DNA of 64,000 bases from Cyanidioschyzon merolae (Eukaryota). The translations under genes and the position numbers were made by a program. The notes under the pieces were generated by a model. The model did no database searches. It was not told the origin of the DNA and saw nothing but the letters and a program-made list of their open reading frames with translations. Of this stretch, positions 6,801 through 63,309 are shown piece after piece. Location: the NCBI GenBank assembly GCA_000091205.1, contig AP006502.2. The stretch is one strand, 5' to 3'. The first letter of the stretch is position 1. Each line of letters opens with the position of its first letter.

Positions 6801-7166
6801 AGTCCGCTTTCCGTACCAGTCGATTCAGGAATGAAAGACCACAAGTTTCGTATCTCAATCCCGCTTCAGAATGCACCCTGCACTGCTTGCAGGCAAGAAG
6901 CAGCGACACCGCCGCGCATCTTCGCTTCAGACGTGGCAGCAGCGTTGGCGTTCTCGTGAACGGCGCATAGGATAGACGTTTCGTCTGCTTCATTTCGGAC
7001 CTAGACCATGTTTCTGTGGTTTAGTGCTCCCTTATTTACAAGAAGCAATACGGGCACGCGGTGGATACCTGTAGGCAAACACCCGCTCGCCTGGGAACAG
7101 GCACGAGTGTGGCGTTGTCTTCACGAGCCGGCTGTGTTGGCGCTCCGCGGCCAGGACGCTGCCGCA

Positions 7167-8471
7167 ATGTCGAAGAAACGAGTCAGCAGCGCTTCGATGG
7201 AGCCGTTCAACGTTGAATCGCTCGTCCGGGACGAACTTCAGCGTATGGAACCCTACGCGCCGATCCTACCGTACGAAGTACTCGCGCGACAGCTCGGACG
7301 CGATCCGAGTGAAATCATCAAACTGGACGCGAACGAGAATCCTTATGGCGTTTGTCCCGCCGTGCGAAACGCAGTGGCGGCTGCACCTTTCCCGCATATT
7401 TACCCGGATCCCGAGTCACGAGAGCTGCGCGAGGCGCTGGCGGCGTTCACGGGCGTACCTGCCTCGCGACTCCTTGTGGGCCACGGTGCCGACGAGCTCA
7501 TTGACCTTATTTTTCGACTCGTGATCCGAGCGAATCATCAGGATACTGTAGTGAACGCTCCACCTACGTTCGGTATGTACCAGTTCGATGCGGACTTGAA
7601 CGCAGCCAAAGTGGTTTCGGTATGGCGAAAAGCTGACGATGGCTTTCGCTTCCCAACCGAGCAGGTGGAGGCGTACTTTGCAGAAATCGCTGCTGCACGA
7701 GAGCGAGGCGTAGACCAGTCCTACCCCAGGATTGTCTTCGTGACTTGCCCCAACAACCCCGATGGCTCCCGAATATCGGATAGCGATCTGCGACGACTTT
7801 TACGCCTACCAACCCTGGTGGTGCTCGACGAAGCCTATATTGAGTTTGCGGATAGCGAGGAGGAGCGTTACCCAGATGCATCGGGCGGCAGCGAGACGCG
7901 TGCAACGGTTACAGAGCCACCCACACGGATTCGCTGGGTTCTTGAATACCAGAATCTCATCGTTTTACGAACGTTTTCCAAATGGGCCGCCCTAGCCGGC
8001 CTGCGGGTAGGTTATGGTGCTTTCCCGGAAGCGCTTCTGCCGCATCTCTGGAAAATCAAACAGCCCTACAACGTCAATGTGGCTGGGCAGGTTGCCGCCC
8101 TGGAAGCGCTATGTCAACGAGATCTCCTGTTCCAGCAAGTTTCATGGATGAAAGCGGAACGCCAACGCCTTTACCAAATCCTTCAGGCACCGCAGTTCGC
8201 GTGGTTGCATCCATACCCATCACAGAGCAACTTTGTGCTCTGTCGAGTGCGTTCTGATGATGCGCTCTGTAATGGATCCCGAAGAAAGGTTGCCTCTGCC
8301 CGGGCCCTGCGTGATTTTCTGCGAGATCGCGGTATTCTCATTCGTTACTATGATTCGAAAGGTCTGACAGACTGTATACGAATTTCCATGGGGACACCCG
8401 CCCAGATGGATCGCCTCTACGAGGTGTTGGAAGCGTACGCTCGTGTTCTCGGATATGGAAATGAAAGATAA
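7167..8471 (+). CDS. histidinol-phosphate aminotransferase (class II PLP-dependent aminotransferase, HisC/HIS5 family)
   Basis: ORF 7008..8471; the first ATG in that frame is at 7167 (MSKKRVSS...). Motifs: LDANENPYG, GHGADELIDL, PLP-lysine context RTFSKWAALAGLRVGYG, C-terminal GILIRYY. An acidic ~50-aa insert sits between the large and small domains. Confidence 0.85.
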   Translation: MSKKRVSSASMEPFNVESLVRDELQRMEPYAPILPYEVLARQLGRDPSEIIKLDANENPYGVCPAVRNAVAAAPFPHIYPDPESRELREALAAFTGVPASRLLVGHGADELIDLIFRLVIRANHQDTVVNAPPTFGMYQFDADLNAAKVVSVWRKADDGFRFPTEQVEAYFAEIAAARERGVDQSYPRIVFVTCPNNPDGSRISDSDLRRLLRLPTLVVLDEAYIEFADSEEERYPDASGGSETRATVTEPPTRIRWVLEYQNLIVLRTFSKWAALAGLRVGYGAFPEALLPHLWKIKQPYNVNVAGQVAALEALCQRDLLFQQVSWMKAERQRLYQILQAPQFAWLHPYPSQSNFVLCRVRSDDALCNGSRRKVASARALRDFLRDRGILIRYYDSKGLTDCIRISMGTPAQMDRLYEVLEAYARVLGYGNER

Positions 8472-18535: not shown

Positions 18536-19051
18536 TCAAGTGGTGTTGCAGTCTCCATGGGAGGCGATCGCCGCGATGACTACAATCTGGGTCCAAGCCT
18601 GCTTTCCATCCAAGCCGAAGAGACACGAGCCTTCTGGAGACAGATCTCGTGCAAGGTATGATGCCAGTGTCGACACTCTGATGTGCTCAATGGGCCGAGG
18701 ATGTCCCACGACCATGGAGGCTACATAACTATCCGCCCGCAGGTGCCTTCCAGCCATTTCGGACCGGACCGCTGTTATCGGTTTCAGTTTATTCAGGCAC
18801 ATTTCAAGTCTGAAAGGCTGTACATCCAAGTTGGATCGCGTCAGCTCCTCGGGTCTCGTCTTCAGGAACGCACCTTGTCTGGTATGGATGGTGGCGTTGA
18901 AGACTCGCTGCGCGAACGCCATGCATTTCCTGCCTCTGGTTGAACTCGTGAATGCAAGGAGTCGTAGAACTGGTCCGCTGTGTTCCATTTGGTGCTGTGC
19001 CAGCTCCCCGTGATTCTCTATTGCCTGAGCGCCCAGCTGGCTTCTCACCAT
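18536..19051 (-). CDS. hypothetical protein (171-aa ORF)
   Basis: ORF only; the surrounding 18.2-19.1 kb has open frames on both strands. No recognisable motif. Confidence 0.15.
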   Translation of the reverse strand: MVRSQLGAQAIENHGELAQHQMEHSGPVLRLLAFTSSTRGRKCMAFAQRVFNATIHTRQGAFLKTRPEELTRSNLDVQPFRLEMCLNKLKPITAVRSEMAGRHLRADSYVASMVVGHPRPIEHIRVSTLASYLARDLSPEGSCLFGLDGKQAWTQIVVIAAIASHGDCNTT

Positions 19052-20617
19052 CTGGACCTTCTCAAGTGAAGGCCCAAGCTCACCCCATAGATTTTCTGAA
19101 ATGAAAGCACTTGTTTATGCCCTTAGGTGGAGATCGCCCAGGAAGGAGGCGGACTTGCGGAAGAAAGACAACATGTGTCCCGGTGGGTCATCGTGTGCTG
19201 GACGCTTCAGCGATTCGCTCAATGGAGCGATCATAATGCTTTACGATAGAAAACGTCCCTTCGATAGGTTCTCATCAAGGTGAGAATGGTGGAACGAAAA
19301 GCAGCTCTACCCACATAGAAGCGGAAAAGCTCGAGGGCAAGGAGAATGGAGAAATGCCACATCATCGAATAGAAGGACGTCATCAGACGTCAGCGGAAAA
19401 GTCGTCGATGATTCGACAATGTGGGTGCTGTTGTATGAGGCTTCTCTATAAGCCAAACTCGGGCTGCCAAATAAATCCACTGCAGCTAGAACAGATGATG
19501 ATGTCATCATTATCTTTGATTTCGATCAAACATGCAACGGGTTCCCTGCTCCACGAATACCCATATACGCTCCGACTGTTTCATCCGAGGCAAGTCTCAT
19601 CGACTGGAAAACAAACCGACGCTCCTGTGGTTCATACCAATGGTGACGCTCCAGGTAGGCTCTAGTTGCGGTTTCGGTGGAAGATGGCCGTGGCTGAACT
19701 AGGACTCTTTTTTGCGACTGTATTCCGGTCTTTCGAGGAGCATACGAACAAGCTGGTGAGAAACAGAGACGCCCTTGGCGGCTGCTATCGTCGCCTCTGC
19801 TTTCGGTAAAGTCATCAAAAGGCCGTTTTTCTACCGTTGACCGCAAGTGCTTCCTGGAAATATCCTTTTTTAATGCGAAGCGCATACGCCGCATTCTTTC
19901 TGCGTTCCTCAGCCATCTGCGTACGTTGGTATGCCTGCACTTAAGGAGGAATGCAGTTCTCCATGCACCGTTCAGTTAAGCGCATATCCTACATGAAATT
20001 TGTCTACGATCTAAAGCGTCCACGGCGTGGCGGTATCGATCGCCACCCAGACATCGCGGATCGGGTGGAACCCCGTTGATTTCAAAGATTAAAAAGACAG
20101 CGTAGTTTGTCTTTCAAGCCACATCACTTCCTTCAATCCGAAACTTAAGTGAGCTCGGAAAATGAACCTGTGAACAAGCCTTCGTCGGACAATATCGAGT
20201 TTGTTTCGTCGTCATTCAAGCGGCGAGCTTCGGTGCGCTTACCACTTGCCTTGAAACAAAACAGACGACGGAAGATCCTGAAACCACGTAAGCATCCGTG
20301 AGCTCTTATGACTTTATTTCAAAATTAAAAACTGTACATCTCATAAACTGTTCAAAATTGAACTGATGAACGGGAGCAGAGCGATCAGTTCCGTCTTCGA
20401 TACTCATCGAACACAAGTGCAGAAGCCAAGGCAGGCGCCAGAGTCGCCAATACTGAACGCCTTGCGTCAACTGTCGCCGCCGACACCGAAGCTAAGCGTT
20501 GGGTGCTCACGAATGCTCACCAGTGCTAGCAAAGTTCGGGCTTCTTTTTTGTCTCTATTTTAGTCCCAGCCGACGACTTGTGCGTTGCGTACTGGCTAGA
20601 CACGCTGGAAGAAAGAC

Positions 20618-24820: not shown

Positions 24821-26092
24821 GCAAGTTTAGAGCATTCGGGGAACTCCGAGCAGAGCACTGGCGGGGCTCGTTCACGATTTCTGGCGTCCTTGAAGGGTAC
24901 CGAAGAAAGTCTCTGGGGACAACGGAGACGGACGGAGTACCCATGTGCGTGCGTTCTGTGATACCAAGGCTTTAGTCGACAAACAAGACTCTTTTTCACC
25001 CGCTCAACACGCGTGACCAGAGGCAGTTTGTGGTGGACATCCAAATCGAGTTGAACGACACCATGACCGTCGCCGCAACTCCTATTCTAGAGAACGACAC
25101 GAAAGGCAGGAGCAGGAAGCAGATGCTGCTGCTGCTGCTGCTGCTGCTCAGCATTTCCAGCGCTCTACATGATCGAGAGCAGGGCTTCATCGACGGCAGG
25201 AAGCGCCCTAACAAATGAAAGGTCGGCGTCGCGACTTGGAGTTCGACTTCGACGCCCTGAGCACCTTTTCGAGCAAAGCGACACGCGCGGCACGCTTCAT
25301 GAAGGGAGCGTACGTCATCGTCCAAATGGCTTGTGCAGACGGCCTGTGGCAGTTCCTCGGATCGCACAAGCATCGTCTACCGCTTCGGTTGTGCGGAGGC
25401 AGGAAGCGTCCATTCGACTGCTCGATCCAAGAGCTGGGAACGCAAATGACCGATGAGTAACGTCGCTTGGTGGTAGCCAATGGCGCTGGACGTGCTGTGG
25501 CGCAGAAAGGCTGCACGCCTGCTTCTTGAACGACAGCATATGATAAACCATGAATCGATTCTGAAACCACACCCATGGATATGTTCAGGACGACGTGAAC
25601 GCATCACGAGCTCGGGCGCAAACAAAAACTGTTAGAGAAGAAGAGCGTGAGGCGGAGTCAGATGCACGGGATTGTGTACGGTAAGCTGACTTCACGACCG
25701 ATGGCGAGCTAATCGAAAATGAGAAGCATACTCTGGTGTGATTCTACTGCCAACAATGGGCGCAGGCAGTTTGTAGACCGCGACTCGATCGCCTCGATGA
25801 CCATTCGGGTATGTCCCATGCTTCCGGAGCGTTCAGCGGTATTGGCTCGAGCGAACGAACGGACGAACGAACATCCCGATGAGTCGTTGAGTGCTCCATA
25901 TGGATCATTTCCTGAAACGCTGCAGACTTTTGATGAAAATAACCAGCGTCCGGTCGACAGAGGATTCGATTCGCGCCTGCAGCTAGCCATGGTACCGCGC
26001 GTTTCACCAGTACTCCAGAGCTAAAGCGCGATCTCCATGTTTCCACTGGGAGCTGTTTTTCATGGGAGTTGTTGAACGAAAGCGATGGTGCA
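24821..26092. repeat. left arm of a 1.26-kb inverted repeat pair (reverse-complement of 38214..39474, ~98-99% identical)
   Basis: ORF-track proteins on opposite strands are near-identical (24996..25373- vs 38925..39299+; 25744..26106- vs 38201..38554+). Nucleotide homology stops sharply at 'GCAAGTTTAGAGCATTC' on the outer side and at '...GTTGAACGAAAGCG' on the inner side. Contains a (GCT)n microsatellite at 25125-25148. Confidence 0.9.
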
Positions 26093-27039
26093 TTACTCGA
26101 TATCACAGATTATAGACGTCCATGTCTATCAGGTTTATGCATGGGCCACATGCAGCAAGCAAGTCATCGAGGTTTCTGTTGTGCAAAGAGGTGATGGCTC
26201 CCAAGCAAACCGATTTGCGTATGTGTTGGTTTCTTCCGCGTGTGTGTGTGTGTGTGCCAGTCCATGGCTATGGCTGCTATTTATCCAGATGTCATGGTGT
26301 ATACCCCGTGGTACACAAGGATGAGCGCGACAATGTAAAATCTCTTACGTGCGAGACAAATGTCGTCCAAATGCGACCCAGAGAGTTCTCCATGACACCG
26401 TTATAGAATTGGATGGCTGGTGAACGGTTAAGGCCTTGCGGTCCGCCTGTGTACCTTTCAGATATTGTCTTTGCTGTCCGATACTGAAGCAGAATAGTTT
26501 CGGACGTAACCTCTAGACTTGAACGATAGCACTTCACGCGAACCTGTAGATAGTGTTTGATTCGTCGGCAAGTTCCTTGGTCCAGAGGAGTGGTCGAAAC
26601 CAAGCGAACATCGCCGGTCGCTAATGAAAGTACCGGTGATGATTTCCAGTTTCAACCTGTATCAAGCAGTGCCACCAGAATCTAGGCGATGCATCAGACA
26701 ACCGTTTCGAGCCTGACACGTGAGAGATAATGCTTTTGAACCTATCTTGTTCAGTGAAAATCGCACAACTTGGCTTGGGTGTGTTCTACTTTGAAACTTT
26801 CAAGCGCTTCCCTATTCCATGCCTCAGATATCCCTTGTGCCTTTGGTGCACTATGTATATGGCCCCAAGCGCATCTCTTGCATTCTTTTTACTTGGAAAC
26901 CCAGTAAGCGTTTCACGCTTCCCAGGGGTCATCGGCGACCCGGCTTTTGACGTTCCGTAAGACCTCTCCAGCATCACCTCCATAGAATCTTCCTTGGAAA
27001 CCTTCAGGGAATTTCCATACACTTGATTTGGCGATCCTT

Positions 27040-29561: not shown

Positions 29562-31655
29562 GAGACGCGGCCTTCTCGTGACTAGGTCTGTTCCACGTGA
29601 GCGGACTAGACGGGTACCACGGTGAACGCCAGGGATCGCTCACCGATCCCGATGCAAAGACACACAGTCAGGTACAGACACGCACCCTAGTTTATTCCAA
29701 AGCCCAAGTGGCGCTTCGAGGAGCAACGCTATTTTCCCCAGCGCTTTGGTGGGTAATCTGCAGATGTTGTCCTTCACAAAAATTGGTATCTGATTTGAGC
29801 AGCGCCGAGCGCGCTCACGCGTTTTCGATTTCGATCGATGCTATCGCTTCTGGTACCGGGAAAATCTGCGCAACTCGATGAATGCTGAAGGCTGTTTCAC
29901 TTGGAAGGGCAAGCTTCGGTTGGCAGGCTCTGTGAACGTTGTCGCGTCGTCGCTATAGCCGCGTCAGATTACGATAGGCCATGGGGCTGCTCGTCCTGTT
30001 CGTGCCTTGAGATTTTCTGGACTTTATTTTGTAGATATACTGCCACGTCATTCACAGTGCAACAAGAAGCGCACACGGATGCATACACTGTTAAAAGATG
30101 CTCTATCGTCTTCTCTGAGTTGGTTAGTCGAATGTTCCGGGCTGGAATTCATGGCGTCAGCGCAATCAACACGATTTACGACGCCCTCGAATCAGCGTTC
30201 GAAACATACCCGATATCATCATCCAGTTCATACGTACAGGACTCCACTATTCTGCTTTCCCAATGTCTAGTATGCTCAGATCATGCACGCTTCAAGTTTT
30301 TGATGTTCCTGTCTCAAGGAATTAGGTGCGCGGGGCACTGCTCGCTGCTTGATGAACGAGGAAACAAATTCGACGTCGTTCCTTGACGACTTGTTTACAA
30401 GCTCATGCCAAACGTTCGCTCAACTTATCGCGTCAAATAATTGGTTTCGTTCTAAAGATAAAGCCTATTCTTTTTGTGGCCATCGACGAAACGGCATTCG
30501 ACCCCAGCAATGGTATCTCGGGAGGAATATGCCTCAAGACGATCCTGTCTCTTCTGTTTGCTTGATAACAAGTCTTGGACTCGGACTTGAGTCGTCGCAA
30601 CAATCGCACAAAGCGGAGCGTGCGTCACCATTTTGCATAACGGGAGCGTAGACGGATCAAATCTCTGGAACTCCTTCTCAGATTGGATTCTCCGTCCACT
30701 GCCTGATCCGTCAAGAACAATACTGTGTTGCACAAATCCTCTGTCGAATAGAGCAGCTCGTCGTTGCGCGTGCTGCGGACAGAGAACTACCCTGAGGCAT
30801 TACCACAAAGACGCCTGCGATCGCCGGTTGCAGCTTCGGGATCGAAAAACAGTGGTCGGCATGCGGGGTGCCTTCCGTATCCTCCCCGGGGATGTACTGG
30901 TCGGTGAGGCAAGCTTTCATGTGCCGCAGGCCGCCTTGGAGAAGGGAATATGGTGGGCGTATGGAAAAGCCTGGATCTACTCAAGCGGTATCGCTGTGCA
31001 AGTCGTACCGAGGCCGAATACAAAAAACATTCGCAGATGGCTGCTTTTGCATATGCATGAAATGCGCCGACAGCAACCACAACCTGCGAAATCGGGACGC
31101 TATGGCTGCCTTGAACATCAAACGATGTGTGCGGTAATGACGACGAGACACGCGAGGCTGGCGCGAGCGACCCTCATGGGGCATCCTCTCAGGCTAGAGG
31201 TGAACAAGGAGAAGCTGAAGCAGATGGCAAGCGGCCGATCGAAAAAGGCCAGGAGTGGTCTGTGAGTGAGTATTCCCTTGCCCTGCATGGCCGTGGGACA
31301 TTTTCGTTCCATGGAGCATGCTGGTCTGCAACCATTTTTTAGCTGGCAAATCGATTAAACAGGCCAGGGATCGCCGACTGTGCCCTTGGTATCAGCGCGT
31401 GGTGAAGCAAGCATCATTCCACGCCCTACTTGCAAATTCCATAACCCATACCTCTTCTCGGATATACTGGTCACTTTATTCGTTCTATCGTGCGCCGAGT
31501 ACCTGCCCTGATCATCCGCGATAGCGCCTATTCCGCCTGTGCAGTCGCTGCACGGAGAGAGAACGGCGTCGCCGTACCACTGAGGACGTCGGGTCGAGGA
31601 ACGCTACCCCTGATGGGGAGTTAGAGTACATAATCTTTCTGGGAGCCTGGAAGCT

Positions 31656-31684
31656 CTGCATACAGACCTATAGTCTGTATGCAG
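31656..31684. other. perfect 12-bp-stem palindrome (CTGCATACAGAC-ctata-GTCTGTATGCAG) near the inferred left end of Fanzor copy 1
   Basis: Read directly from the sequence. It could be a sub-terminal hairpin of an IS200/IS605-like end, or an unrelated terminator-like hairpin. Confidence 0.4.
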
Positions 31685-32211
31685 CGCGAAGCGATACGCA
31701 AGGAGATGATTGCGACCAGGGTGGTGCCCAAACGCAGCATACCCGCTCCTTGTACCAGAATAAACTGCGTTTCGAACGAGTTGCTCAGATCTCAATTAAG
31801 TAGCTACCGCTGGGGGAGCATGAAGCACTGCTGTGGCAGACACGTCCGGCTCGCGGGACATTTCGCCTAAAGAATAAACTTTCGGCAATCTGGACGCCGT
31901 TTTCCCCTTTTAATGTTTACCATAGAGGGGAGAGAAATTGTCATATCGTTGCTAGTTAGTCGTGAGTCTCTGTTCTTTGTTCTACATAGTGCGCTCGAGA
32001 CGCGCACCGGAGAGATCAGGCAGGCATGAGTTATGACGCGCTTGTCGCTGTTGAATGGAAACGCGATCCAAATCTTTATGATCTACCTGTAAAGTACACG
32101 TTGTATTTGCATTGAAGTCGTAGCAAACTGTAGTTTCAGTTGAATCGTGTTTCAGCGCTCAAGTAAGAATATTCAAGTGCTTTTTCGCGGTTTATAGCAG
32201 AAGCGTTCAAA

Positions 32212-34477
32212 TTGTGTTCTTTCTCGAAAGAAACTAAAAAAAGAAAGTTATGGAAAAGCAAGTGGAAGATCCTCGAGGGCCGGTACCGCCGGCTGCCAGA
32301 AGAAAAACAAAAAACAATATGGAGTCCAGAGGAACAGGAGAGGACGAAGAAGCAAAGGCAGAAGGCTCTACTTCAAAGGCTGCAAGAAAGACGACTGTAC
32401 GACGAGATGGTGGTGAAAGCCTTTCTTCTTGGACATATCAGGTATCCGTACATACAAAAATTGCGAGAGGCCATCAGAAACCGTGTCGATTCATGCTCCA
32501 AGAGTGTTCGCAAGGCTTCTTTAGGACTGATGCGTATGGCCGGGGATATATTCCGCGACGTGACGCACATGGAAACGGTCGAGATTCCGGACGAGTTTTT
32601 CGATAAGACGTGTATAGGTCAGCTGATACTTGGTACAGAGGAATCGCGGAAGGAAAATGGGCTAGTCCATGGCCTCCACGAAAAAAACATCCCTTTTACA
32701 GCTTCAACGGCGCTCGGTACAAGGGTGACCGGGATATTTACAGCTATGGGGCGATGAAGTACCTCACGAACCTGAAGAACCATTTGACAACGAACCTCGA
32801 ACGTTTCATGATACGCGCCGTGTTTGCACTCTACCCGGGCATCTCGCGCAATGGGAAAGGGGCGATGATCAACGGCATCACGAAAGATCGCAGGCATGAA
32901 GATGAGGTCGAATTCGTCGACAAGAAGGCATCAAACGCGTGCACGAATTAAGCTTCTGTAATCCGTGCGGCTGTACAAGAGCACCGTGCGGTACTGGGGT
33001 TGGCGTATCCAACAGACAAGATATCAGAGTTGAAAGAAGATAAGGAAAGATACTATCGCCTCATCCTGCGATATTTCGTGTTTCTGGACTGTGAACTCGA
33101 ACGCAAGGCGGAAATGAAGCTGAGTGAGGAAAAAATGAAGAGTGGGAGAGACGGAAGGCTGTCCTGTTGGGGAAGCGCTTCAAGGTCGGTGCGTTATGCA
33201 ACATCAAGTCACATTTTGTGAGTATCGATTCCGGCGTCCTCTACGGCATCATGAGGGAGATCTGTTCGGAGTTCGATGTTAGCAGGGAGGAATTCTCCCG
33301 GGAAAACCGGGAGACGTACTGGAAGAACATCTTCGATTTCAAACGTCTCAAAATGAGCGAGCAAAAGTTATTCACTGGGGTGATTGAAACCGATGGAGTA
33401 GCCATGTGTGTACGCTATCGGCGGTTGAAGAAAGATCGGCCAGTTCCGCCCTCGGCTGCGCCCGTCACGAAGGATGAAGAAAAGGAGGAGGCTGGTCCTG
33501 TGGCGCAGGAGGTGCAGGATGACGATCTTGTCGTTGGCGCGGCGAAGCATGAAGATGAGAAGGAGGCGGATCCTGTGATGCAGGAGGTGCAGGATAACGC
33601 CTTTATGGTTGGCGCGGCGAAGCATGAAGAAACGAAGAAGGCGGGTCCTGCGGTGCAGAAAGTGCAGGAGAACGACTTTGTCGTTGGCGCGGACCCCGGA
33701 AACACAAAAAGCATAACTATCGCAGCACCGAAGCGTGCAGAAGATGGTACTGATGGTAACTTGCGTCAGAAGGACATGCGCCTTTTGAGGTGCTCGAGAG
33801 CAAGATACTATCGAGAATCAGGTGTAATGAATGCAAGGAAGAAAATTGAGGCTTGGAACGAAGGAATGAAGGATCACCTGGAAGCTTTAAGCGAGGTGAC
33901 TAGACGAGGAGCGGACTTTGAGGCTTTTCGGAAATTCATGGAAGTTCGTGTTGCCCATTGGGATGCGCTGTGGGAGGAGTATACCAAGCCCCGCTGGGCT
34001 CGTTTGCGAATGAATCTATACTGTGGGAAGCAGCAGGCGTTCGCGAATTTTTTTAATGAGTTGAGCGCCCTGAAGGAGGATGAAAGTCAGAGGCTCGTCG
34101 TAGCGTACGGAGCAGGGCGCTGGAAGATCCGAAAAGGGTGTACACCAGCTCCAACAACGAGAACGTACAAGGAGTGTGCACGGCGTTTTGTTACAGTATC
34201 GATAGTTGAGTTTCGAGCATCGTATACACACCATGAGCTGGGCTGTATACTTCAGAGAGTGGAGATGGAAAAGTGCCAACGGAGCCCTGAGGATATAGCA
34301 AAGTACGGACCACTGACGGAGGAGCAAATGGAAAGGAGGGCAAAAATTCGTGGACTACTTGCATTAGTAAGTGCAACTCCCAACGGCACGAAACGTATGG
34401 AATTTGTGAACCGTGACTTTAACGCCGCTATCAATATACGGAGATGTGCGGTACTGGAGAAGAGACCTCCATCATAG
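32212..34477 (+). pseudogene. TnpB-like / Fanzor-type RuvC nuclease gene, interrupted (two frame changes plus one in-frame TAA)
   Basis: Frame A 32212..~32686 (MCSFSKETKKRKLWKSKWK..., Lys/Arg/Glu-rich and NLS-like) runs to an A7 homopolymer at 32681-32687. Frame B continues (KKHPFYSFNGARYKGDRDIYSYG...KKASNACTN) to TAA 32949-32951, after which the same frame stays open (ASVIRAAVQEH...). Frame C 33128..34477 carries RuvC-I '[16 protein letters not shown]', the Fanzor1-like RuvC-II region 'VVAYGAGRW...IVEFRASYTHHELGC' and RuvC-III 'EFVNRDFNAAINIRRCAV'. Copies 2 and 3 conserve all three parts at the amino-acid level. Confidence 0.6.
33482..33705 (+). repeat. 3 x ~76-bp in-frame tandem duplication inside the Fanzor ORF, immediately preceding/including RuvC-I
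   Basis: Units start at 33482, 33560 and 33635 and encode [26 protein letters not shown] / [25 protein letters not shown] / [24 protein letters not shown]. Only the third unit keeps the catalytic Asp. Copy 3 has a single unit. Confidence 0.85.
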
Positions 34478-34762
34478 ACAAGAGAGCACTTTATTGAACA
34501 ATCTGTCCAAGTCGAACTATATGAGAGAAAGTTGGAAGCAGTAGGAGGTGGCCGATCCAAGAAGGCGCGGAGGCATCTGCACAACTGTCGGAGATGATTT
34601 GTCCAAGGCGCGGTTGCCGCCACGACTGTCCACGCCCGACATCGTTCGAGTTTGAACAGCGTTTTGGAGGCGCGTAATCGATTCATTCGGTTCGCGTTGG
34701 AGCTTTTCGCGGCGTTTTCGTTTCGTGACTGCCGGACACGGGTTTTTGTGAGAAACAGCGAC

Positions 34763-34990
34763 ATGGCGTCACCAAAGAAGACTGCGACGAAAGCTGCTTC
34801 AGCACCGAAAAAGGCTGCGGCGAAAACGAAGGGCGAACGGAAACCAAACGCTTACCAAGAGTTTATGAAGGCAGAGAGTGCCAAGATTCGGGAGTACAAC
34901 AAAGCAAAAGGAATCGAAATGAGGCCACCTGATATTTTCAAGGAGTGTGCGAAGAGATGGAACGAGAAAAAGTCCAAGACAAAGGCGTAA
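34763..34990 (+). CDS. small Lys/Ala-rich DNA-binding-like protein (possible HMG-box-like, 75 aa)
   Basis: ATG at 34763 within ORF 34652..34990: MASPKKTATKAASAPKKAAAKTKGERKPNAYQEFMKAESAKIREYNKAKGIEMRPPDIFKECAKRWNEKKSKTKA. It has a histone-H1-like basic N-terminus and weak resemblance to an HMG-box helix pattern. It lies 180 bp downstream of the copy-1 right end. Confidence 0.35.
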   Translation: MASPKKTATKAASAPKKAAAKTKGERKPNAYQEFMKAESAKIREYNKAKGIEMRPPDIFKECAKRWNEKKSKTKA

Positions 34991-37544: not shown

Positions 37545-38213
37545 ATTGCAAGGTAGCAGCGCCGAGCAACGTTTGCGCTTGAGCGGCAGCTCCCAGAAGT
37601 GACACTCAGGTTTACAGAAACAGAGGGCGCTTTGCACGCACACGCACGGATAAATACGCACGCAGACACGCACGAAATAAACTCAGACACGCAAACAGAA
37701 ACTTGGCGCCACGAAACGAATGCATCAGCGCCACGATCGCTTCGGCGCAATCGGCGATGGGCGCGCTGGTGCACTCGCTGGCATCTGTGCAGCGCGATCC
37801 GTCGCTTACCGGGTTCGTTAAAGGTAACGCGCAGCTGGTGGATGTAGTTCAGTTCATGGGTCTGAATGCTGACGAAAATTGTGCATTTCCAGGTCACTGG
37901 ATTTGTGTCGTGAGACCGCTGCATGTAGAAGCGGGTTGTTCATTCACGGCATCAAAAGCTCGTTGTGTGGTGAGTCGTTTTGCGCATTCAGCCTCGAAGT
38001 GTACGCTCGAATCGGCAACGGTCTGAGAAACATTTTGAGCTATGGGTGGACTCCAAAATCAGGCCAAGCAAAGTGTTTCTCTTCAAACGGGCATGCTGAG
38101 GCGCCATCACGAGCCTTCATAGGAGAGCCTCAAGTCGGGTACCGCGAGTAGAAGCCATGGAGATTTAGCGCGTTATTTTGGCTCTAGTCAGTGACGTGGA
38201 TTGAATGAAACAG

Positions 38214-39474
38214 CGCTTTCGTTCAACAATTCCCATGAAAAACAGCTCCCAGTGGAAACATATAGATCGCGCTTTAGCTCTGGAGTACTGGTGAAACGCG
38301 CGGTACCATGGCTAGCTGCAGGCGCGAATCGAATCCTCTGTCGACCGGACGCTGGTTATTTTCATCAAAAGTCTGCAGCGTTTCAGGAAATGATCCATAT
38401 GGAGCACTCAACGACTCATCGGGATGTTCGTTCGTCCGTTCGTTCGCTCGAGCCAATACCGCTGAACGCTCCGGAAGCATGGGACATACCCGAATGGTCA
38501 TCGAGGCGATCGAGTCGCGGTCTACAAACTGCCTGCGCCCATTGTTGGCAGTAGAATCACACCAGAGTATGCTTCTCATTTTCGATTACCTCGCCATCGG
38601 TCGTGAAGTCAGCTTACCGTACACAATCCCGTGCATCTGACTCCGCCTCACGCTCTTCTTCTCTAACAGTTTTTGTTTGCGCCCGAGCTCGTGATGCGTT
38701 CACGTCGTCCTGAACATATCCATGGGTGTGGTTTCAGAATCGATTCATGGTTTATCATATGCTGTCGTTCAAGAAGCAGGCGTGCAGCCTTTTTGCGCCA
38801 CAGCACGTCCAGCGCCATTGGCTACCATCAAGCGACGTTACGCATCGGTCATTTGCGTTCCCAGCTCTTGGATCGAGCAGTCGAATGGACGCTTCCTGCC
38901 TCCGCACAACCGAAGCGGTAGACGATGCTTGTGCGATCCGAGGAACTGCCACAGGTCGTCTGCACAAGCCATTTGGACGATGACGTACGCTCCCTTCATG
39001 AAGCGTGCCGCGCGTGTCGCTTTGCTCGAAAAGGTGCTCAGGGCGTCGAAGTCGAACTCCAAGTCGCGACGCCGACCTTTCATTTGTTAGGGCGCTTCCT
39101 GCCGTCGATGAAGCCCTGCTCTCGATCATGTAGAGCGCTGGAAATGCTGAGCAGCAGCAGCAGCAGCAGCATCTGCTTCCTGTTCCTGCCTTTCGTGTCG
39201 TTCTCTAGAATAGGAGTTGCGGCGACGGTCATGGTGTCGTTCAACTCGATTTGGATGTCCACCACAAACTCCCTCTGGTCACGCATGTTGAGCGGGTGAA
39301 AAAGAGTCTTGTTTGTCGACTAAAGCCTTGGTATCACAGAACGCACGCACATGGGTACTCCGTCCGTCTCCGTTGTCCCCAGAGACTTTCTTCGGTACCC
39401 TTCAAGAACTCCAGAAATCGTGAACGAGCCCCGCCAGTGCTCTGCTCGGAGTTCCCCGAATGCTCTAAACTTGC
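38214..39474. repeat. right arm of the 1.26-kb inverted repeat pair (partner of 24821..26092)
   Basis: See the left-arm entry; (CAG)n at 39150-39170 mirrors the left-arm (GCT)n. Confidence 0.9.
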
Positions 39475-52232: not shown

Positions 52233-53243
52233 TCACAAAGTCGCGGACGCCTTGCGGTAATAAGGCGGCCACAGATCATAACCGAATCGCTCGTAATCCT
52301 CGGCGTACAATTTTCTAACCCTTTGCGCCAGACGTTCGTTCACGTGCTTGTGCAAGAGGCTTGCTGCGCTCTGGGAGTGCAGGGTATTCCGGCCGCTCGC
52401 TTGTGCTCGCTTCCGCATGGATTCGTGCCACTCGAGACCGGCCTGACCAAACATATCCACGTAAAACTTTCGAAGTGACTCGGGTTCATCTACTTTTCCG
52501 ATACAGTCGAAGAATGTCCGAGGCAGCATGCGAAAAAGGCAGAAGCCCGACTGTGGGCGCCAATGTTCGTCGAACGGTGTCAGATCTGGGGTCATGGTCT
52601 TTGCAGCCTCTTCCAGGTAGTCCACAAAACGTTCAAACGAGTGAGGGTATCGATTTTTCAATGGATATCGTTCCAGTTCGCGTCCAGCTTTGACTTTATC
52701 AAGGTAAGCCGACAGCAAGCGTGTAAGCGGATGGCGCACCAGGGCACCAAACTTCCACGATGGATCCGAGAGCACTCGAAGAAGCTCCTCGTCCTGCAAA
52801 TGAAGGAGCTGCGTCAAGTTTGCGCGGCCTTGCGGATGAATCAAGTGGATTTCATCGGCATCCAGGGGGTCCAGAACCACCCCCAGCGTTTCCCGCAAAG
52901 CAAATGCACGTGCGGCAGTACAACCGGCTTTCGGTATCGAGCAGAGCAGGCGCTGTTGTTTCGCGAATACGATAACGCCAACAAACGATTGCTCCTGTTC
53001 CCGACGCCAAAGATCAGAAATATTCTGAAAATACTCTGCAAGCGGTTTTTCATTGAAGAGACTTGCAAGCACTGGGGCTTGCCAGGAAAAGTTTACTGTG
53101 TGAGAACGATACTCACTCGGAGAAGATGTTTCGAGTCCGGGCGACGGAACCATGAGGGTTTGCAGCACGCGGTGCGAGGCCAGGATCAGAAGCAACACCC
53201 AGAAAACGGTGAACCAGAAAAACCACCGAAACCATAAATGCAT
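52233..53243 (-). CDS. carbohydrate sulfotransferase-like protein 1 (Sulfotransfer_2 family, type II membrane topology)
   Basis: ORF 52233..53369 that starts at GTG in the track; ATG = rc of 53241..53243 (MHLWFRWFFWFTVFWVLLLILA is a TM segment). 5'-PSB-like 'CSIPKAGCTAARAF', 3'-PB-like 'LVRHPLTRLLSAYLDK', 'DEHWRPQSGFCLFR'. Paralog of 58163..59236. Confidence 0.7.
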   Translation of the reverse strand: MHLWFRWFFWFTVFWVLLLILASHRVLQTLMVPSPGLETSSPSEYRSHTVNFSWQAPVLASLFNEKPLAEYFQNISDLWRREQEQSFVGVIVFAKQQRLLCSIPKAGCTAARAFALRETLGVVLDPLDADEIHLIHPQGRANLTQLLHLQDEELLRVLSDPSWKFGALVRHPLTRLLSAYLDKVKAGRELERYPLKNRYPHSFERFVDYLEEAAKTMTPDLTPFDEHWRPQSGFCLFRMLPRTFFDCIGKVDEPESLRKFYVDMFGQAGLEWHESMRKRAQASGRNTLHSQSAASLLHKHVNERLAQRVRKLYAEDYERFGYDLWPPYYRKASATL

Positions 53244-53456
53244 ATCTATTTCCTCTACACCGACACGTTGCTTTCCAGGGAAACGAGTGGGAAGATCGTG
53301 TTCCCTCACTCGCCTAATACAAAGCGCCAATGGCTGCAGAAGCGCTGGTGCGGAGTACGCCGCACGCACGCACCAAACGCCGTTCGAACTTGAACGACGT
53401 CGGGCGTGTACAGTAGTGGCGGGAAAACCGTCTTAGATTAGAAGTCTCCAACTGAC

Positions 53457-56450
53457 GTGCAGATGCCTCCGCGCCTTTTTGGATCGGCCACCTCCTACTG
53501 CTTCCAACTTTCTCTCATATAGTTCGACTTGGACAGATTGTTCAATAAAGTGCTCTCTTGTCTATGATGGAGGTCTCTTCTCCAGTACCGCACATCTCCG
53601 TATATTGATAGCGGCGTTAAAGTCACGGTTCACAAATTCCATACGTTTCGTGCCGTTGGGAGTTGCACTTACTAATGCAAGTAGTCCACGAATTTTTGCC
53701 CTCCTTTCCATTTGCTCCTCCGTCAGTGGTCCGTACTTTGCTATATCCTCAGGGCTCCGCTGGCACTTTTCCATCTCCACCTTCTGAAGTATACACCCCA
53801 GCTCATGGTGTGTATACGATGCTCGAAACTCAACTATCGATACTGCAACAAAACGCCGTGCACACTCTTTGTACGTTCTCGTTGTTGGAGCTGGTGTACA
53901 CCCTTTTCGGATCTTCCAGCGCCCTGCTCCGTACGCTACGACGAGCCTCTGACTTTCATCCTCCTTCAGGGCGCTCAACTCATTACAAAAATTCGCGAAC
54001 ACCCGCTGCTTCCCACAGTATAGATTCATTCGCAAACGAGCCCAGCGGGGCTTGGTATACTCCTCTCCCAGCGCATCCCAGTGGGCAACACGAACTTCCA
54101 TGAATTTCCGAAAAGCCTCAAAGTCCGCTCCTCGCCTAGTCACCTCGCTCAAAGCTTCCAGGTGATCCTTCATTCCTTCATTCCAAGCCTCAATTTTCTT
54201 CCTTGCATTCATTGTACCGGATTCTCGATAGTATCTTGCTCTCGAGCACCTCAAAAGGCGCATGTCCTTCTGACGCAAGTTACCATCAGTACCATCTTCT
54301 GCACGCTTCGGTGCTGCGATGGTTATGATATGTGTGTTTCCGGGGTCCGCGCCAACGACAAAGTCGTTCCCCTGCACTTTCTGCACCGCAGGACCCGCCT
54401 TCTTCGTTTCCTCATGCTTCGCCGCGCCAACCATAAAGGCGTTATCCTGCACCTCCTGCATCACAGGATCCGCCTCCTTCTCATCTTCATGCTTCGCCGC
54501 GCCAACGACAAGATCGTCATCCTGCACCTCCTGCGCCACAGGACCAGCCTCCTCCTTTTCTTCATCCTTCGTGACGGGCGCAGCCGAGGGCGGAACTGGC
54601 CGATCTTTCTTCAACCACCGATAGTGTACATACAATGCTACTCCATCGGTTTCAATCACCCCAGTGAACAACTTTTGCTTGCTCGTTTTGAGACGTTTGA
54701 AATTGAAGGTGTTCTTCCAGTAGGTTTCCCGGTTTTCACCGGTGAAGTCCTCCCTGCTAACATCGAACTCCGGACTGTTCTCCCTCATGATGCCGTAGAG
54801 GACGCCGGAATCGATACTCACAAAGTGTGACTTGATGTTGCATAACGGAACGACGTTGAAGCGCTTCCCCATTCGGACAGCCTTCCGTCTCTCCTACTCT
54901 TCATTTGTCTCTTCACTCAGCTTCATTTCCGCCTTGCGTTCGAGTTCACAGTCCAGAAACACGAAATATCGCAGGATGAAGCGATAGTATCTTTCCTTAT
55001 CTTTTTTCAACTCTGATATCTTGTCTGTTGGATACGCCAACCCCAGTACCGCACGGTGCTCTTGTACAGCCGCACGGATTACAGAAGCTTAATTCGTGCA
55101 CGCGTTTGATGCCTTCTTGTCGACAAATTCGACCTCATCTTCATGCCTGCGATCGTTCGTGATGCCGTTGATCATCGCCCCTTTCCCATTGCGCGAGATG
55201 CCCGGGTAGAGTGCAAACACGGCGCGTATCATGAAACGTTCGAGGTTCGTTGTCAAATGGTTCTTCAGGTTCGTGAGGTACTTCATCGCCCCATAGCTGT
55301 AAATATCCCGGTCACCCTTGTACCGAGTACCGTTGAAGCTGTAAAAGGGATGTTTTTTCGTGGAGGCCATGGACTAGCCCATTTTCCTTCCGCGATTCCT
55401 CTGTACCAAGTATCAGCTGACCTATACACGTCTTATCGAAAAACTCGTCCGGAATCTCGACCGTTTCCATGTGCATCACATCACGATACATCTCCCTCAC
55501 CAAATGCATCAGTCCTGACGACGCCTTGACAATACTCTTGGTGTACGAGTCGACACGTTTTACGATAGCGTCTCGCAACAATTCCCTGTGGGGATCCTTG
55601 ATATGTCCAAGAAGGAAGGTTTTCACCACCTTCTCGTTGTACAGTCGTCTTTCTTGCCGCCTTCGACGTAGGGCCTCTCCCTTTCGGTTCTTCTTCTATT
55701 CCTTTTCTCCTGGACTCGGCACTGTTTTTTGTTTTTTCTGGCAGCCTGCGACCCTGGGCCTCCAGGATCGTGGACATGCTTTTCCATAGCTTTCCTTTTT
55801 GTTTTTTTTTTGAAGAAGAACGCTCTTTGAACCCTTCTGTTATATACTGCAAAAAAACACTAGACTAGAGTTGTTTGAAGTTTGAAACAAAAACGAACTG
55901 AAAGGCTGTACTTTGCAATGACCTCAACGAAAATACAACTTTTAGAACAGAGCTACACGAATGAGATCGAGATCGCGTCTCTCTTCAACGACGGCACGCA
56001 CATCGTGTCAGTTAACTGCGCGATCTCCCAAGCGCGCTCGCTATGCGCAATGCGTGCACCGCGCGAGACGCTACTCGGATCGATGAAGGACACGTGTTCG
56101 ACGCCGCATTGGCACATGCGCGTTAGCATCGCACTGGAGCTGAAATAAAGTATCATAGACCGGAAACTCACGTGGAACGATCTCTTGCTATAAGCTATGT
56201 CGCTCGTGCACATCGCAGTACGGACCTGACATACATGGAGATGTAGGGGCCTGGCACGATACCCCTCGACGCTTCTATCAAAAGCGTAGTCGCGGTAGCA
56301 TCTTACGCTTGTGCGGGTAAGGTATGCATCACACCAGCTTGGAAGGGTTTCGTTCGGTTTATTGATCGTAAATAAAGTAGGCACAGTCGTATAACCAAGT
56401 ATGAATATACGTTTATTCTCTATCCTTGTTATGCATGCAGCGCAGACGCT
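53457..56450 (-). mobile_element. Fanzor/TnpB-like element, copy 2 (inverted relative to copy 1)
   Basis: The rc of 53457.. matches the copy-1 right end exactly up to 'GCGGAGGCATCTGCAC' and then diverges. The internal 3x tandem repeat lies at ~54340-54570. The 5' region is weakly homologous to copy 1 as far as ~56450. Confidence 0.6.
53562..55852 (-). pseudogene. TnpB-like / Fanzor-type RuvC nuclease gene (copy 2), same interruptions as copy 1 plus an extra N-terminal frameshift
   Basis: 436-aa ORF 53562..54872 is ~93% identical to the copy-1 C-terminal ORF (RuvC-I GADPGNT, RuvC-III NRDFNAAINI). ORFs 55089..55370, 55312..55629 and 55481..55852 match copy-1 frames B and A. The homopolymer is A6 here (T6 at 55353-55358 on the + strand). 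Confidence 0.6.
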
Positions 56451-58162: not shown

Positions 58163-59236
58163 TCACGAGAGCGCGCCATCTGCATCCACCTCATCCGGCC
58201 ACAAGTCATAGCCGAAATTGATATAGTCTTCCGCGTATAGTCGCTGGATGCGCTTTGCTAGGTCCTCACTAACGTACGCCCGCAGCTTGGCATTCGCGGA
58301 TCGCGCATGTGCGGCCTGCTGACGATGCGCTGCGGCTCGTGCGTCTTGATCCTGGACCCAGCGGCGTCCGTCCTCGTCGAACATATCGATAAAAAGTTGT
58401 CTCAACGCGCTGCGATTCTCAACTTTCACGACGTAATCATACAATTGACGGGGTATAAAACGAAAAAGACAAAACCCCGACTGAGGTCGCCAGTGCTCAT
58501 CGACCCAGTCCCAGTTTTTCCGATACCGACGTGCAACGTCTTCCAAGATGCTTACAAAATGCTCAAACGATGTTACAGGTTGCCGCTGCAGTGGACGACG
58601 CCAAAGTTCCCTCTGGCCAACAATTTTATCCAAGTACGCTGATAGGAGGCGTGATAGAGGGTGTCGCACCACAGCAGCGTACCTCCAGTCCGGGTGCGTC
58701 AGAGCATAATGAACCTGGTCGTCTGAGAGTGACCCCAGCTGCAGCAGGAAGCGTTTGCTGACGGGATGAATATACGAGAAATTCTGCGCATCCGTCGGAT
58801 TGAGCTCAACGTTCAGCTGCTTGCGCAGGGCGAACGCCCGCAGGTTCGTGCACGCAGCCTTCGGAATACTACAGAGCAAGCGTTTCTCTTTCGGAAAAAC
58901 AATGACCCCAACGTAGCTGAGTTTCTGCTCCACTCGCCACTCTGGCTTCAGTTTGAGGCTGATGTTGTGCTTTCCGTTCACAAGACGTTCCGCTGCCGAC
59001 GGAGTTGCGGGCCCTATCGATCCCTGTCCGATAGTTGTGTCCGTTCTCTTTGGGAGCTGCTCAGATGAGAGTGGGCCCCACAGCGCGGAGCGTGAAGCAA
59101 TGTTGAACGCCGTTGACGCCACAGCCAGGCACCACAAAATGAAAAGCACTGTCAGCACCTGTCGCCAGCTCAGCCTCGAAGACATAAACAAACGTATACC
59201 CATTCGGCGACTGCGTACTAGCGAAACCCAGCTCAT
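58163..59236 (-). CDS. carbohydrate sulfotransferase-like protein 2 (Sulfotransfer_2 family)
   Basis: 357 aa, ATG = rc of 59234..59236. N-terminal TM 'VLTVLFILWCLAVAS'. 'CSIPKAACTNLRAF', 'AVVRHPLSRLLSAYLDK', 'DEHWRPQSGFCLFR'. About 50% identical to 52233..53243. Confidence 0.7.
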   Translation of the reverse strand: MSWVSLVRSRRMGIRLFMSSRLSWRQVLTVLFILWCLAVASTAFNIASRSALWGPLSSEQLPKRTDTTIGQGSIGPATPSAAERLVNGKHNISLKLKPEWRVEQKLSYVGVIVFPKEKRLLCSIPKAACTNLRAFALRKQLNVELNPTDAQNFSYIHPVSKRFLLQLGSLSDDQVHYALTHPDWRYAAVVRHPLSRLLSAYLDKIVGQRELWRRPLQRQPVTSFEHFVSILEDVARRYRKNWDWVDEHWRPQSGFCLFRFIPRQLYDYVVKVENRSALRQLFIDMFDEDGRRWVQDQDARAAAHRQQAAHARSANAKLRAYVSEDLAKRIQRLYAEDYINFGYDLWPDEVDADGALS

Positions 59237-61303: not shown

Positions 61304-63309
61304 TCACGCGCAATGTCCGACGATCATGAGAGGTAAATGAATATCCACTCGCAGACGCCTCCCAGTCTTTCTCGACCGGCCTGCTTCTGTCGGTTTCAGC
61401 ATCTCCCTATACATTTCGACGCTGAAAGGCTGTCCAGCAAAGTTGGCTCGCGTCTGCTCCGCGGGTCTCTTCTTCAGCACCGCGCATCTTCGGATACTGA
61501 TAGCAGCGATAAGGTCTCGGCTCACAGACTCCATGCGTTTCTTGCCGCCGCCTGTACACGGCAATGCGAATAGGCCTCGAACTTTCGCCCTCCTTCCCAT
61601 TTGCTCTTCCGTCAACGCTCCGTACTTTCTTACATCCTCGGGGATCCGCTGACGCTTTTCCATCTCGACCCTCTGAAGTGTACACATCAGCTCGTGGTAC
61701 ACGTAGGACGTTCGGAACTCATCTGTAGGTATCGTGACGAAACGCCGTGCGCTCTCCTTGTACGCTCGTGTCGACGGAGCTGGCGTAGTCCCTTTTTTCG
61801 ACGCCCAGCGCTCTGCCCCGTATGCAACACGAGCCTTTGACTCTCGTCCTCTTTGAGGGCGTTCAGCTCGTTGGAAAAGTTGGCGAATGCACGCTGCTTC
61901 CCACAAAAGAAGCTGATACGCAGACGAGCCCAACGGGGCTTTGTGTACTCTTTCCACAGCGCCTCGTACTGAGAAACGCGAACTTTCACGAATTCCCGAA
62001 AAGCTCGAACGTCCGCCCGACGGCTCGTCACCTGGCTGATCGCTGCTAGGTGTTCTTTGACTCCTGAGTTCCACTTCTCACTCTGTATCCTTGGATTCCT
62101 TACCCAGACTCTCGGTAGCACCCAGCGCTTGAGAACCTCAAAAGACACATGCCTTTCTGACGTAAGTTACCTTCAATGCCGTTTCCCCCGCGTTCGAGTG
62201 CTGCGATGGTCACGGTATCCGTGTTCTCGGGGTCCGCGCCAACGACAAAATCGTTGCTCTGCACCTGCTGTGCCGCAGGGCCCGCCTCCTTTTCTCCACG
62301 CTTCGTCAAAATCGACAACAAAAACGGAATAGGACGATCCGCCTTCAACTGCCGATCGTGCACATACATGGCTACTCCATCGGTTTCGATGACGCCTGTG
62401 AATACCTTTTGCTTGCTCGCATGGAAACGTTTGAAATCGAAGATATTCATCCAGTATGTCTCCCGATTTTCGGCGTTGAACTCTATGTTCCTTACATCGG
62501 ACTCTGGACAGACCTCCTTCATGATGCCGTCAACGGCTGTGGAGTCGATAGTCACGAAATGTGATCTGATGTTGCACATTGGAACCACGTTGAAGCGCGT
62601 CCCCAGAAGCGCCGCCTTCCCTCTCTCTTACTCTTCATTTCTCCCTCACCCAGCTCCTTTTCGGCCTTGCGTTCGAGTTCTCAGTCCAAAAACACGAAAT
62701 AGCGCAGGATGAGGTGATAGTATCTTTCCTTATCTTTTTTCGTATGTGCAACCTTTTTGCTGGGTTGACAAGCCCCAAGACTGCACGGTGCTCTTGTAGA
62801 GCAGCACGGATTCCAGAAGCTTCGTTGTTTCTCCTGCGTGATGTCTTCTTGTCGACGAATTCGATCTCATCTTCACGCTGGCGATGGTTCGTGACGTCAT
62901 TGATGAAGGCCCGTATCCATCTACTAGACAGGTCCGGGTAGAGTGCAAACACGGCGCGTATCATGGAGCGTTCGATGCTCATGGTCAAGTGGTTCTTCAG
63001 GTTCGTGAAGGACTTTTTCGCATCGTAGGTGTAAATATCCGCCTCAGCCTCGTACCGTCTACAGCTGAAGCGATATTCGGCGTAATTCTAGTGGAGAACG
63101 TGCACTCGCTCGTCTCTCCTCGTCGTTCTCCCTGTTCCAAGCATCAGGTTGCTGATATATATCATATGGAAAAATTCCTCCGGAATCTCGACTATTTCCA
63201 TGTGCGTCAGGTCGTCGTGCATCTCGTTCACCAAATGGATTCGTTCTGACGAGGCCTTTATATTACTCATGGAGCACGAGTCGACACGGTTTCTGATGGC
63301 CTCTCGCAA
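61304..63309 (-). pseudogene. degenerate TnpB-like / Fanzor-type nuclease gene (copy 3), frameshifted; RuvC-III Asp/Asn replaced
   Basis: See above. The frame A to frame B junction is in frame here, separated only by one TAG, which shows the ancestral ORF was continuous across that point. Confidence 0.5.

Follow-up and report, generated by a model that had tools for sequence, protein, structure and literature searches.

In-frame tandem repeats of variable number are known from the open reading frames (ORFs) of mobile elements, one case being the hobo transposase of Drosophila, whose Thr-Pro-Glu repeat is polymorphic and differs in number among copies and strains. Among RNA-guided nucleases, the solved Fanzor1 proteins, namely, SpuFz1 of Spizellomyces (8gkh, 9ceu–9cez), PpFz1 of Parasitella (9cf0–9cf3), and GtFz1 of Guillardia (9cer–9cet), share a WED-REC-RuvC-TNB fold and are encoded by multi-copy elements of eukaryotic hosts. 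Rhodophytes are among the listed hosts of Fanzor (Jiang et al., 2023, PMC10530073). The WED and RuvC domains of Fanzor1 are joined by the "unwinding loop", one residue of which (Y345 in SpuFz1, F392 in GtFz1, and R448 in PpFz1) stacks on the last base pair of the target-adjacent motif (TAM) (PMC11423790), and the substitution F392A lowers cleavage (Xu et al., 2024, PMC11423790). A Fanzor1 is also known to tolerate, near its nuclease core, a lineage-specific insertion of ~100 residues, FRI, which is located within the RuvC domain, is built of helices and strands, and is bound by cyclophilin (PMC11423790). The 64,000-nucleotide stretch of DNA analyzed here (contig AP006502.2, deposited under Cyanidioschyzon merolae; the whole stretch is referred to as the window) harbors three copies of a Fanzor1 element, in two of which the nuclease ORF carries three tandem 75-bp units directly in front of the codon for the RuvC-I catalytic Asp. 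With a probability of roughly 0.78, this array represents a minisatellite that codes for part of the WED-RuvC loop in a Fanzor1 family of red algae, its length being a tolerated, effectively neutral polymorphism that is functionless in the window.

The array sits in the same inter-domain loop as the unwinding loop of the solved proteins, with one to six tandem acidic units of 25 residues in the family described here as against a unique linker of ~15–40 residues in those proteins. It resembles the hobo repeat in being an in-frame tandem repeat of a mobile-element ORF that varies in number, and differs from it in the length of the unit (25 vs. 3 residues), in belonging to an RNA-guided nuclease instead of a transposase, and in abutting a catalytic residue. 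Like FRI, it is a lineage-specific addition next to the nuclease core; unlike FRI, it is placed before RuvC strand β1, is repetitive and of variable length, and is predicted to be unstructured and neutral. A search of the open-access full-text literature turned up no paper in which Fanzor proteins are described as having tandem repeats.

Tandem Repeats Finder located the array of copy 1 at 33468–33692 (period 75, 3.0 copies, 82% matches, score 310) and that of copy 2 at 54347–54571 (period 75, 3.0 copies, 80% matches, score 296), and reported no further long-period array in the 64-kb window. In the codon register, the units of copy 1 occupy 33467–33541, 33542–33616, and 33617–33691 on the + strand and are followed at 33692–33694 by the Asp codon GAC, which specifies D176 (within GADPGN) of a 436-codon ORF. 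The three-unit array of copy 2 lies at 54348–54572 on the − strand, with the Asp codon at 54347–54345. The initial annotation, which had described an in-frame triplication at the RuvC-I motif of a nuclease with the Asp retained in the last repeat only, was thus confirmed as to the triplication, which lies directly 5′ of the RuvC-I Asp of a TnpB-like nuclease, and as to the Asp, which follows the last unit only, the mirror array of copy 2 included. Its three 25-residue repeats and the peptides quoted for them are present, the period being 75 bp and not ~76 bp; the array it had placed at 33482–33705 is real, but that position was off by ~14 nt and took in the first four residues of the following unit. 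Copy 3 carries one unit, as had been noted, of 24 residues (TKRGEKEAGPAAQQVQSNDFVVGA; 62235–62306, − strand), followed by GADPEN with the Asp codon at 62234–62232.

The consensus of the 75-bp unit encodes the 25 residues [T/A]K[H/D]E[E/D][K/E]KEA[D/G]PA[T/M]Q[E/K]V[E/Q]DND[F/L]VV[G/D][A/V]. The three units of copy 1 have a net charge of −12 as against +22 for the remainder of the ORF and are 80–83% identical to each other, while the arrays of copies 1 and 2 differ from one another at 2 nucleotides. Three units are also present in L002, an independently assembled orthologue of copy 2 that is 97.9% identical to it over 4.5 kb including the flanks. As copies 1 and 2 and L002 agree, and as the units are too diverged (80–83%) to be collapsed, the three-unit array is not an assembly artefact. 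An ORF of 99 aa runs antisense to the array of copy 1 (33415–33714, − strand), with an equivalent over copy 2 (54319–54624, + strand), and its translation is repetitive too. The antisense frame is free of stops because the sense codons are purine-rich, and the antisense ORF, already suspected to be spurious, is hence a by-product of the array.

The catalytic Asp position is not contained in the repeated unit. Homology between the units stops one base into the Asp codon (...GGCGCGG/ACCCC after the last unit vs. ...GGCGCGG/CGAAG after the internal ones), and across the units of the family, Asp follows the last unit alone. Of 97 distinct units, 51 open with T and 34 with A, the remainder having V, M, or E in this place; before the first unit, the position is occupied by Thr (ACG). 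The residue after VVGA in the internal units is therefore the first residue of the next unit, which implies that the Asp was never duplicated and then lost. Hence, the Ala that had been taken to replace the catalytic Asp in the first two repeats belongs to the next unit as its opening residue, a place where the family has Thr or Ala, and the Asp lies outside the unit.

The 436-codon ORF has 185 close relatives, every one of them from metagenome gene calls, and a profile search of 1.84 billion cluster representatives returned 1342 clusters, with many proteins of ~600–700 aa. Pfam scans of the window ORFs and of the close homologues gave no significant family; one relative showed a weak match to Cas12f1-like_TNB, and the precomputed label PF26935/DUF8286 was weak. 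Against PDB sequences, phmmer with the single ORF and hmmsearch with a shallow profile (A1) found no match, and only the profile of an alignment of 71 full-length relatives (A2) succeeded, matching PpFz1 (9cf0) with an E-value of 7.5e-21, SpuFz1 (8gkh) with 1.4e-13, and GtFz1 (9cer) with 7.9e-6. The motifs DPG, DEFRT, and NRDxNAA align in all three matches. Within A2, D484 and E656 never vary among the 71 relatives, and D725 hardly varies (numbering of the family member P0003). D176 of copy 1 corresponds to column D484 and is aligned to the DPG/DPN motif of PpFz1, SpuFz1, and GtFz1; the RuvC-II Glu (E348 in IVEFRAS; codon at 34208–34210, + strand) corresponds to E656, and the RuvC-III Asp (D417 in NRDFNAAINI; codon at 34415–34417, + strand) corresponds to D725. 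The catalytic triad D176, E348, and D417 is retained in window copies 1 and 2.

The structure was modeled on P0003, a family member of 752 aa with four units that is 74% identical to the window ORF, and not on the window ORF itself, whose model from a shallow alignment (predicted local distance difference test, pLDDT, of 36) was left unused. The AlphaFold model of P0003, obtained with A2, has a mean pLDDT of 81.4 and a predicted template modeling score (pTM) of 0.81 and displays the WED-REC-RuvC-TNB fold. In a Foldseek search of this model against the PDB, the top seven matches were all Fanzor1 (E-values of 2.9e-18 to 2.8e-14), with template modeling (TM) scores of up to 0.73 when normalized by target length, and Cas12 proteins ranked after Fanzor1. 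Owing to the profile matches, the conserved triad, and the Foldseek matches, the family is assigned to Fanzor1, with the Asp after the array as its RuvC-I catalytic residue. A full-length protein of the family has ~620–750 aa and shares only 12–14% identity with the solved Fanzor1. Unlike the latter, the window copies are pseudogenes residing in a Cyanidiophyceae-like red alga, with an omega-RNA that is only a candidate.

Strand β1 in the P0003 model comprises residues 479–485 (FIVGADP), of which the first five belong to the last unit; the last five residues of unit 3 of copy 1 are likewise the N-terminal part of RuvC β1. The unit abutting the Asp is thus predicted to be the only one giving its hydrophobic tail (F/L-V-V-G-A) to β1, and the upstream units are modeled as a low-confidence, strongly acidic loop. 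Residues 392–470, which lie within the array (384–483), are the sole stretch of three or more residues with a pLDDT below 50, and both the flanking WED hairpin and the RuvC core are confidently predicted. The structural question raised with the initial annotation, i.e., whether the extra units form an insertion loop or disrupt the RuvC fold, is answered by the P0003 model in favor of a loop, with the fold modeled as undisturbed. The accompanying view that the catalytic β-strand had been duplicated, as an unusual structural change, holds insofar as five of the seven β1 residues are part of the unit, but not as regards the fold, since in the model the additional units form a loop without structure and RuvC keeps its fold.

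The position of the array relative to the TAM-stacking residue was derived by mapping Y345 of SpuFz1 to the profile alignment with the 394-residue offset of the maltose-binding protein fusion, which was checked with K312, R315, and R317. Y345 is located 15 residues past the TDG hairpin, and its equivalent in the present family would fall in a conserved KKDRPVPP motif, ~10 residues 5′ of the array. The array accordingly makes up the descending limb of the unwinding loop and not the stacking residue, and a contact with DNA is only putative.

Unit number was found to vary widely across the family. The distance between DRPVP and the Asp is solely 27/31, 52/56, 81/82, 102–106, 127–131, or 156 residues, corresponding to one to six units. 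Units were counted in 65 proteins and in 43 loci. One unit is present in 14 of the 65 proteins and 4 of the 43 loci, two in 14 proteins and 7 loci, three in 10 and 12, four in 17 and 8, five in 8 and 10, and six in 2 and 2, respectively; two or more units are thus present in 51/65 proteins and 39/43 loci. Since 75 is divisible by 3, the reading frame is preserved whatever the number of units. Elements with different unit numbers are intermingled on a star-like tree, and the number changes even at the same locus. Over 7.45 kb, the orthologous loci L009 and L024 differ by 36 mismatches and a lone 147-bp gap, which is situated in the array (three vs. five units), and the orthologous loci L022 and L048 show 98 mismatches and one 75-bp gap, again in the array (three vs. 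two units); the flanks of both pairs are 98.7–99.5% identical, and the sequences of both pairs are short-read metagenome assemblies. In L048, the first unit combines parts of units 1 and 2 of L022 into a hybrid, the outcome expected of unequal exchange. Head-to-tail units, a number that varies among paralogues and at the same locus, and a hybrid unit are the features of a minisatellite. The ladder of one to six units and the differences between orthologous loci reflect gain and loss of whole units, presumably through unequal exchange or replication slippage between units.

The triplication had been described as recent and as having arisen in the lineage of copies 1 and 2. Neither description agrees with the divergence of the units, which are only 80–83% alike, whereas the ORFs of copies 1 and 2 differ by 3.7% (48 of 1311 nt, dN/dS 0.46, the ratio of non-synonymous to synonymous substitution rates). 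Each unit of copy 1 has a counterpart in distant elements with 88–95% DNA identity, which is above the identity to its sibling units. The closest matches of unit 1 (up to 91%) are mainly first units of other elements, and those of unit 3 (88–89%) are mostly last units of other arrays. Unit 2 is 92–95% identical to units of L054, L080, and L026; its matches share a signature and are mostly internal units, the best one being the first unit of L054. The presence of such counterparts indicates that the units diverged before these elements separated, and arrays of two or more units are, as stated above, the rule in the family.

It is therefore scarcely credible that the array originated as a recent, lineage-specific mutation by which the catalytic strand was altered and the nuclease of copies 1 and 2 was inactivated. 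Copy 3 does have a single unit, and so does the closest sister lineage in the tree (L043/L051). Against this stand the divergence of 17–20% between units as compared with 3.7% between copies, the positional counterparts of each unit in distant elements, and the location of the Asp outside the unit. Moreover, the most intact members carry three to four units and model as a complete Fanzor1 fold, and the loss of function of copies 1 and 2 is accounted for by nonsense and frameshift mutations elsewhere. Deeper in the history of the family, the ancestral state was probably one unit, judging from the interval between TDG and DPG, which in other Fanzor1 families is mostly 28–51 residues (outliers 69–117), a spread that speaks for a loop tolerant of length change, and is ~48 in a one-unit member of the present family. 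No other element in the tree is as divergent as copy 3. An old tandem duplication of copies 2 and 3, considered for the polarity of unit number, was ruled out on account of this divergence and because the sulfotransferase genes next to them are only 51% identical and the flanks are without DNA similarity.

Selection on the array was evaluated from dN/dS, which amounted to 0.92 when units were paired within arrays and to 0.96 when last units were compared between loci, as against 0.20 for the 100 codons after the Asp at the same loci. With values of ~0.9–1.0 in the array versus 0.20 in the RuvC core, the array sequence is under little or no constraint. The variable positions of the unit are mostly two-state and one nucleotide apart, as in shuffled minisatellite variants. 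The array is probably neutral, and it may be viewed as a tolerated surface-loop length polymorphism without any change to the active site, which in this window would have no function.

Synonymous and non-synonymous sites evolving equally fast would also be in keeping with a repeat that acts at the level of DNA or RNA, e.g., as reiterated binding sites, as a promoter or enhancer within the element that serves its downstream half, or as a source of small RNAs, the peptide being incidental. Internal tandem repeats have regulatory roles in other transposons, which counts for such a role, and a long antisense ORF or transcript is possible. We nevertheless regard it as highly improbable. The DNA of the units is conserved no better than the rest of the element predicts, the variation is concentrated in a few dimorphic sites of the kind described above, and one-unit copies have spread as ably as six-unit copies. 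No motif or structure was detected in the array, which also lies far from the 3′ end, the site of the Fanzor guide RNA.

The coding minisatellite was further weighed against the view that the nuclease has in its acidic array a functional module of tunable length, or that the β1-like tails of the units contend for the position of the strand, with an inactive conformer lacking the Asp as the result, so that unit number sets activity. In favor of a functional module, all units remain strongly acidic and retain the hydrophobic tail, the longest ORFs of the family have three to four units (L001, 5799–8256, 819 codons and four units; L011, 2073–4407, 778 codons and four units; L005, 830–3146, 772 codons and three units), and acidic stretches occur in the same linker of PpFz1 and of a member of another Fanzor1 family (P0223). 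The location of the array is also suggestive, as it falls in a loop of functional importance in the solved Fanzor1. Such a module is unlikely, however, as dN/dS is ~1 in the array compared with 0.20 in the adjacent sequence, and unit number ranges from one to six without a preferred value and changes at orthologous loci that are already dead. In addition, the internal units make no ordered contact in the model, and most members of the family are pseudogenes. More specifically, the array could attenuate Fanzor1 as a built-in device of tunable length, competing with DNA or RNA near the entry of the R-loop as a β1 decoy or as a disordered mimic of nucleic acid. We consider this very unlikely; if true, the element could adjust its activity fast through gain and loss of units, e.g., so as to keep damage to a small, streamlined host genome in check.

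Certain observations weigh against a neutral minisatellite. The WED-RuvC loop is functional in the solved Fanzor1 (Xu et al., 2024, PMC11423790), and an insertion ~10 residues downstream of the stacking residue need not be innocuous. The array columns have almost no aligned homologues, which itself lowers pLDDT and leaves the disorder unproven. The dN/dS values near 1 pool non-independent pairs and include decay after insertion, although the RuvC control has decayed likewise. The best-preserved copies carry three to four units and acidic composition is kept in all units, an outcome that selection on charge or length, and not on sequence, would give as well. Lastly, the difference between L009 and L024 involves near-identical units that an assembler could collapse; that between L022 and L048 involves distinct units and a hybrid unit and is harder to explain in this way.

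The Fanzor1 element has a length of ~3.3 kb. Copy 1, which is covered by 80 related loci, extends from 31390 to 34664 on the + strand; its right end at 34664 is sharp in every related locus, and its left end near 31390 can be placed only to ~40 nt. The part of copy 2 homologous to copy 1 is at 53375–55867 (− strand), and copy 3, frameshifted and ~74% identical to copy 1, is at ~61464–63857 (− strand). Positions 32170–34664 of copy 1 and 55867–53375 of copy 2 are 92.9% identical in a pairwise BLAST, and the similarity ends at the element ends. A segmental inverted duplication of copies 1 and 2 was thereby ruled out, and the two copies were inserted separately, from a progenitor that was defective before. 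Neither terminal inverted repeats nor target-site duplications nor a transposase partner could be identified.

Copies 1 and 2 are pseudogenes on the basis of shared stops and frameshifts, and neither has an intact ORF. An in-frame TAA (ACTN-stop) truncates the N-terminal half (32949–32951, + strand, in copy 1; 55091–55089, − strand, in copy 2), and a premature TAG (RPPS-stop) removes the C-terminal tail (34475–34477, + strand, in copy 1; 53564–53562, − strand, in copy 2). Copy 1 also contains frameshifts, and copy 2 alone has a further in-frame TAG (54896–54894, − strand) together with a frameshift near 55340. The 436-codon ORF is what remains of the gene in copy 1 (33167–34477, + strand), with its second copy at 53562–54872 (− strand). 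It covers the C-terminal part of WED, the array, and RuvC/TNB, opens with a Leu codon (TTG) where the relatives have Met (ATG), and, compared with the P0003 model, is missing REC in its entirety and the N-terminal strand of WED. The reservation that the triplication would be functionally uninteresting if the copies were dead therefore applies, as both array-bearing copies are pseudogenes. Identical premature stops in separate insertions imply that the defective progenitor kept spreading, presumably mobilized in trans. The RPPS-stop end is also seen in the homologue P0001 and in the locus L002.

The last ~70 nt of the element (34595–34664 in copy 1; 53375–53444 in copy 2) are conserved in all related loci. 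They contain a terminal hairpin with the consensus GTTCGA-CTT-TCGAAC, and the similarity ends abruptly after GGCGTT. If the 3′ end is an omega-RNA scaffold, the point after GGCGTT would be the start of the guide. RNAalifold on the last 150 nt indicated a weak structure, in which 1 of 16 pairs is changed on both sides and the covariation term is 0.5. A Lys-rich ORF of 112 aa (34652–34990, + strand) starts at the right end of copy 1 and has a sub-threshold HMG_box_2 match (E-value of 0.009).

The window belongs to a eukaryotic genome, as its neighboring ORFs, which are long and intron-free, include a WDR75-like protein, Nrap, a Twinkle-like helicase, and a RING protein. A HisC-like ORF (histidinol-phosphate aminotransferase, 7008–8471) has its best named relatives in Cyanidiococcus yangmingshanensis (68%) and Cyanidium caldarium (61%), followed by other red algae, from which the host is taken to be a Cyanidiophyceae-like red alga; the ORF also has a 99% match on an ENA metagenome contig. 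The Cyanidiophyceae are known for very small genomes, and the Fanzor1 family, with at least 359 loci in six Joint Genome Institute (JGI) metagenomes, is a large transposon family for such a lineage. In the open-access full-text literature, no link between Fanzor and Cyanidiophyceae was found beyond the general mention of rhodophytes.

The array illustrates with clarity how a minisatellite behaves within the gene of a transposon. Up to ~125 extra residues are accommodated directly before the catalytic strand, yet the best-preserved members are predicted by modeling to be complete nucleases, and the site marks a permissive insertion point beside the DNA-unwinding loop that is useful for engineering. 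The finding itself is of modest interest, mainly documenting the length tolerance of one Fanzor1 loop, and may be outweighed by its wider context, i.e., a large Fanzor1 family in a relative of thermoacidophilic red algae. Judging from their ORFs, L001, L011, and L005 could be the best candidates for a still-functional, possibly heat-tolerant eukaryotic RNA-guided nuclease. As the window copies are dead, nothing in the window is likely to be active.

Two Sulfotransfer_2 paralogues (52233–53369 and 58163–59236, both on the − strand), 51% identical to each other, are each located downstream of a Fanzor copy in the same orientation, and the 5′ end of the former adjoins the right end of copy 2. Their flanks are without DNA similarity, which indicates that no recent segmental duplication took place. 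Copy 1 is bracketed by an inverted pair (24821–26094, + strand; 38204–39474, − strand) whose members are 98–99% identical. What is left in the pair, without any long ORF, are coding remains of a second Fanzor-like family that has diverged much further, showing ~35% amino acid identity to the RuvC half of P0003 at 25248–25856 and 39050–38442. Two further Fanzor-like fragments were found, one at 18827–19081 (− strand), 42% identical to the RuvC-III region, and one at 31128–31271 (+ strand), just left of copy 1 and 40% identical to the C-terminal tail. Together with the three copies and the inverted pair, these bring the Fanzor-related pieces in the window to at least seven.

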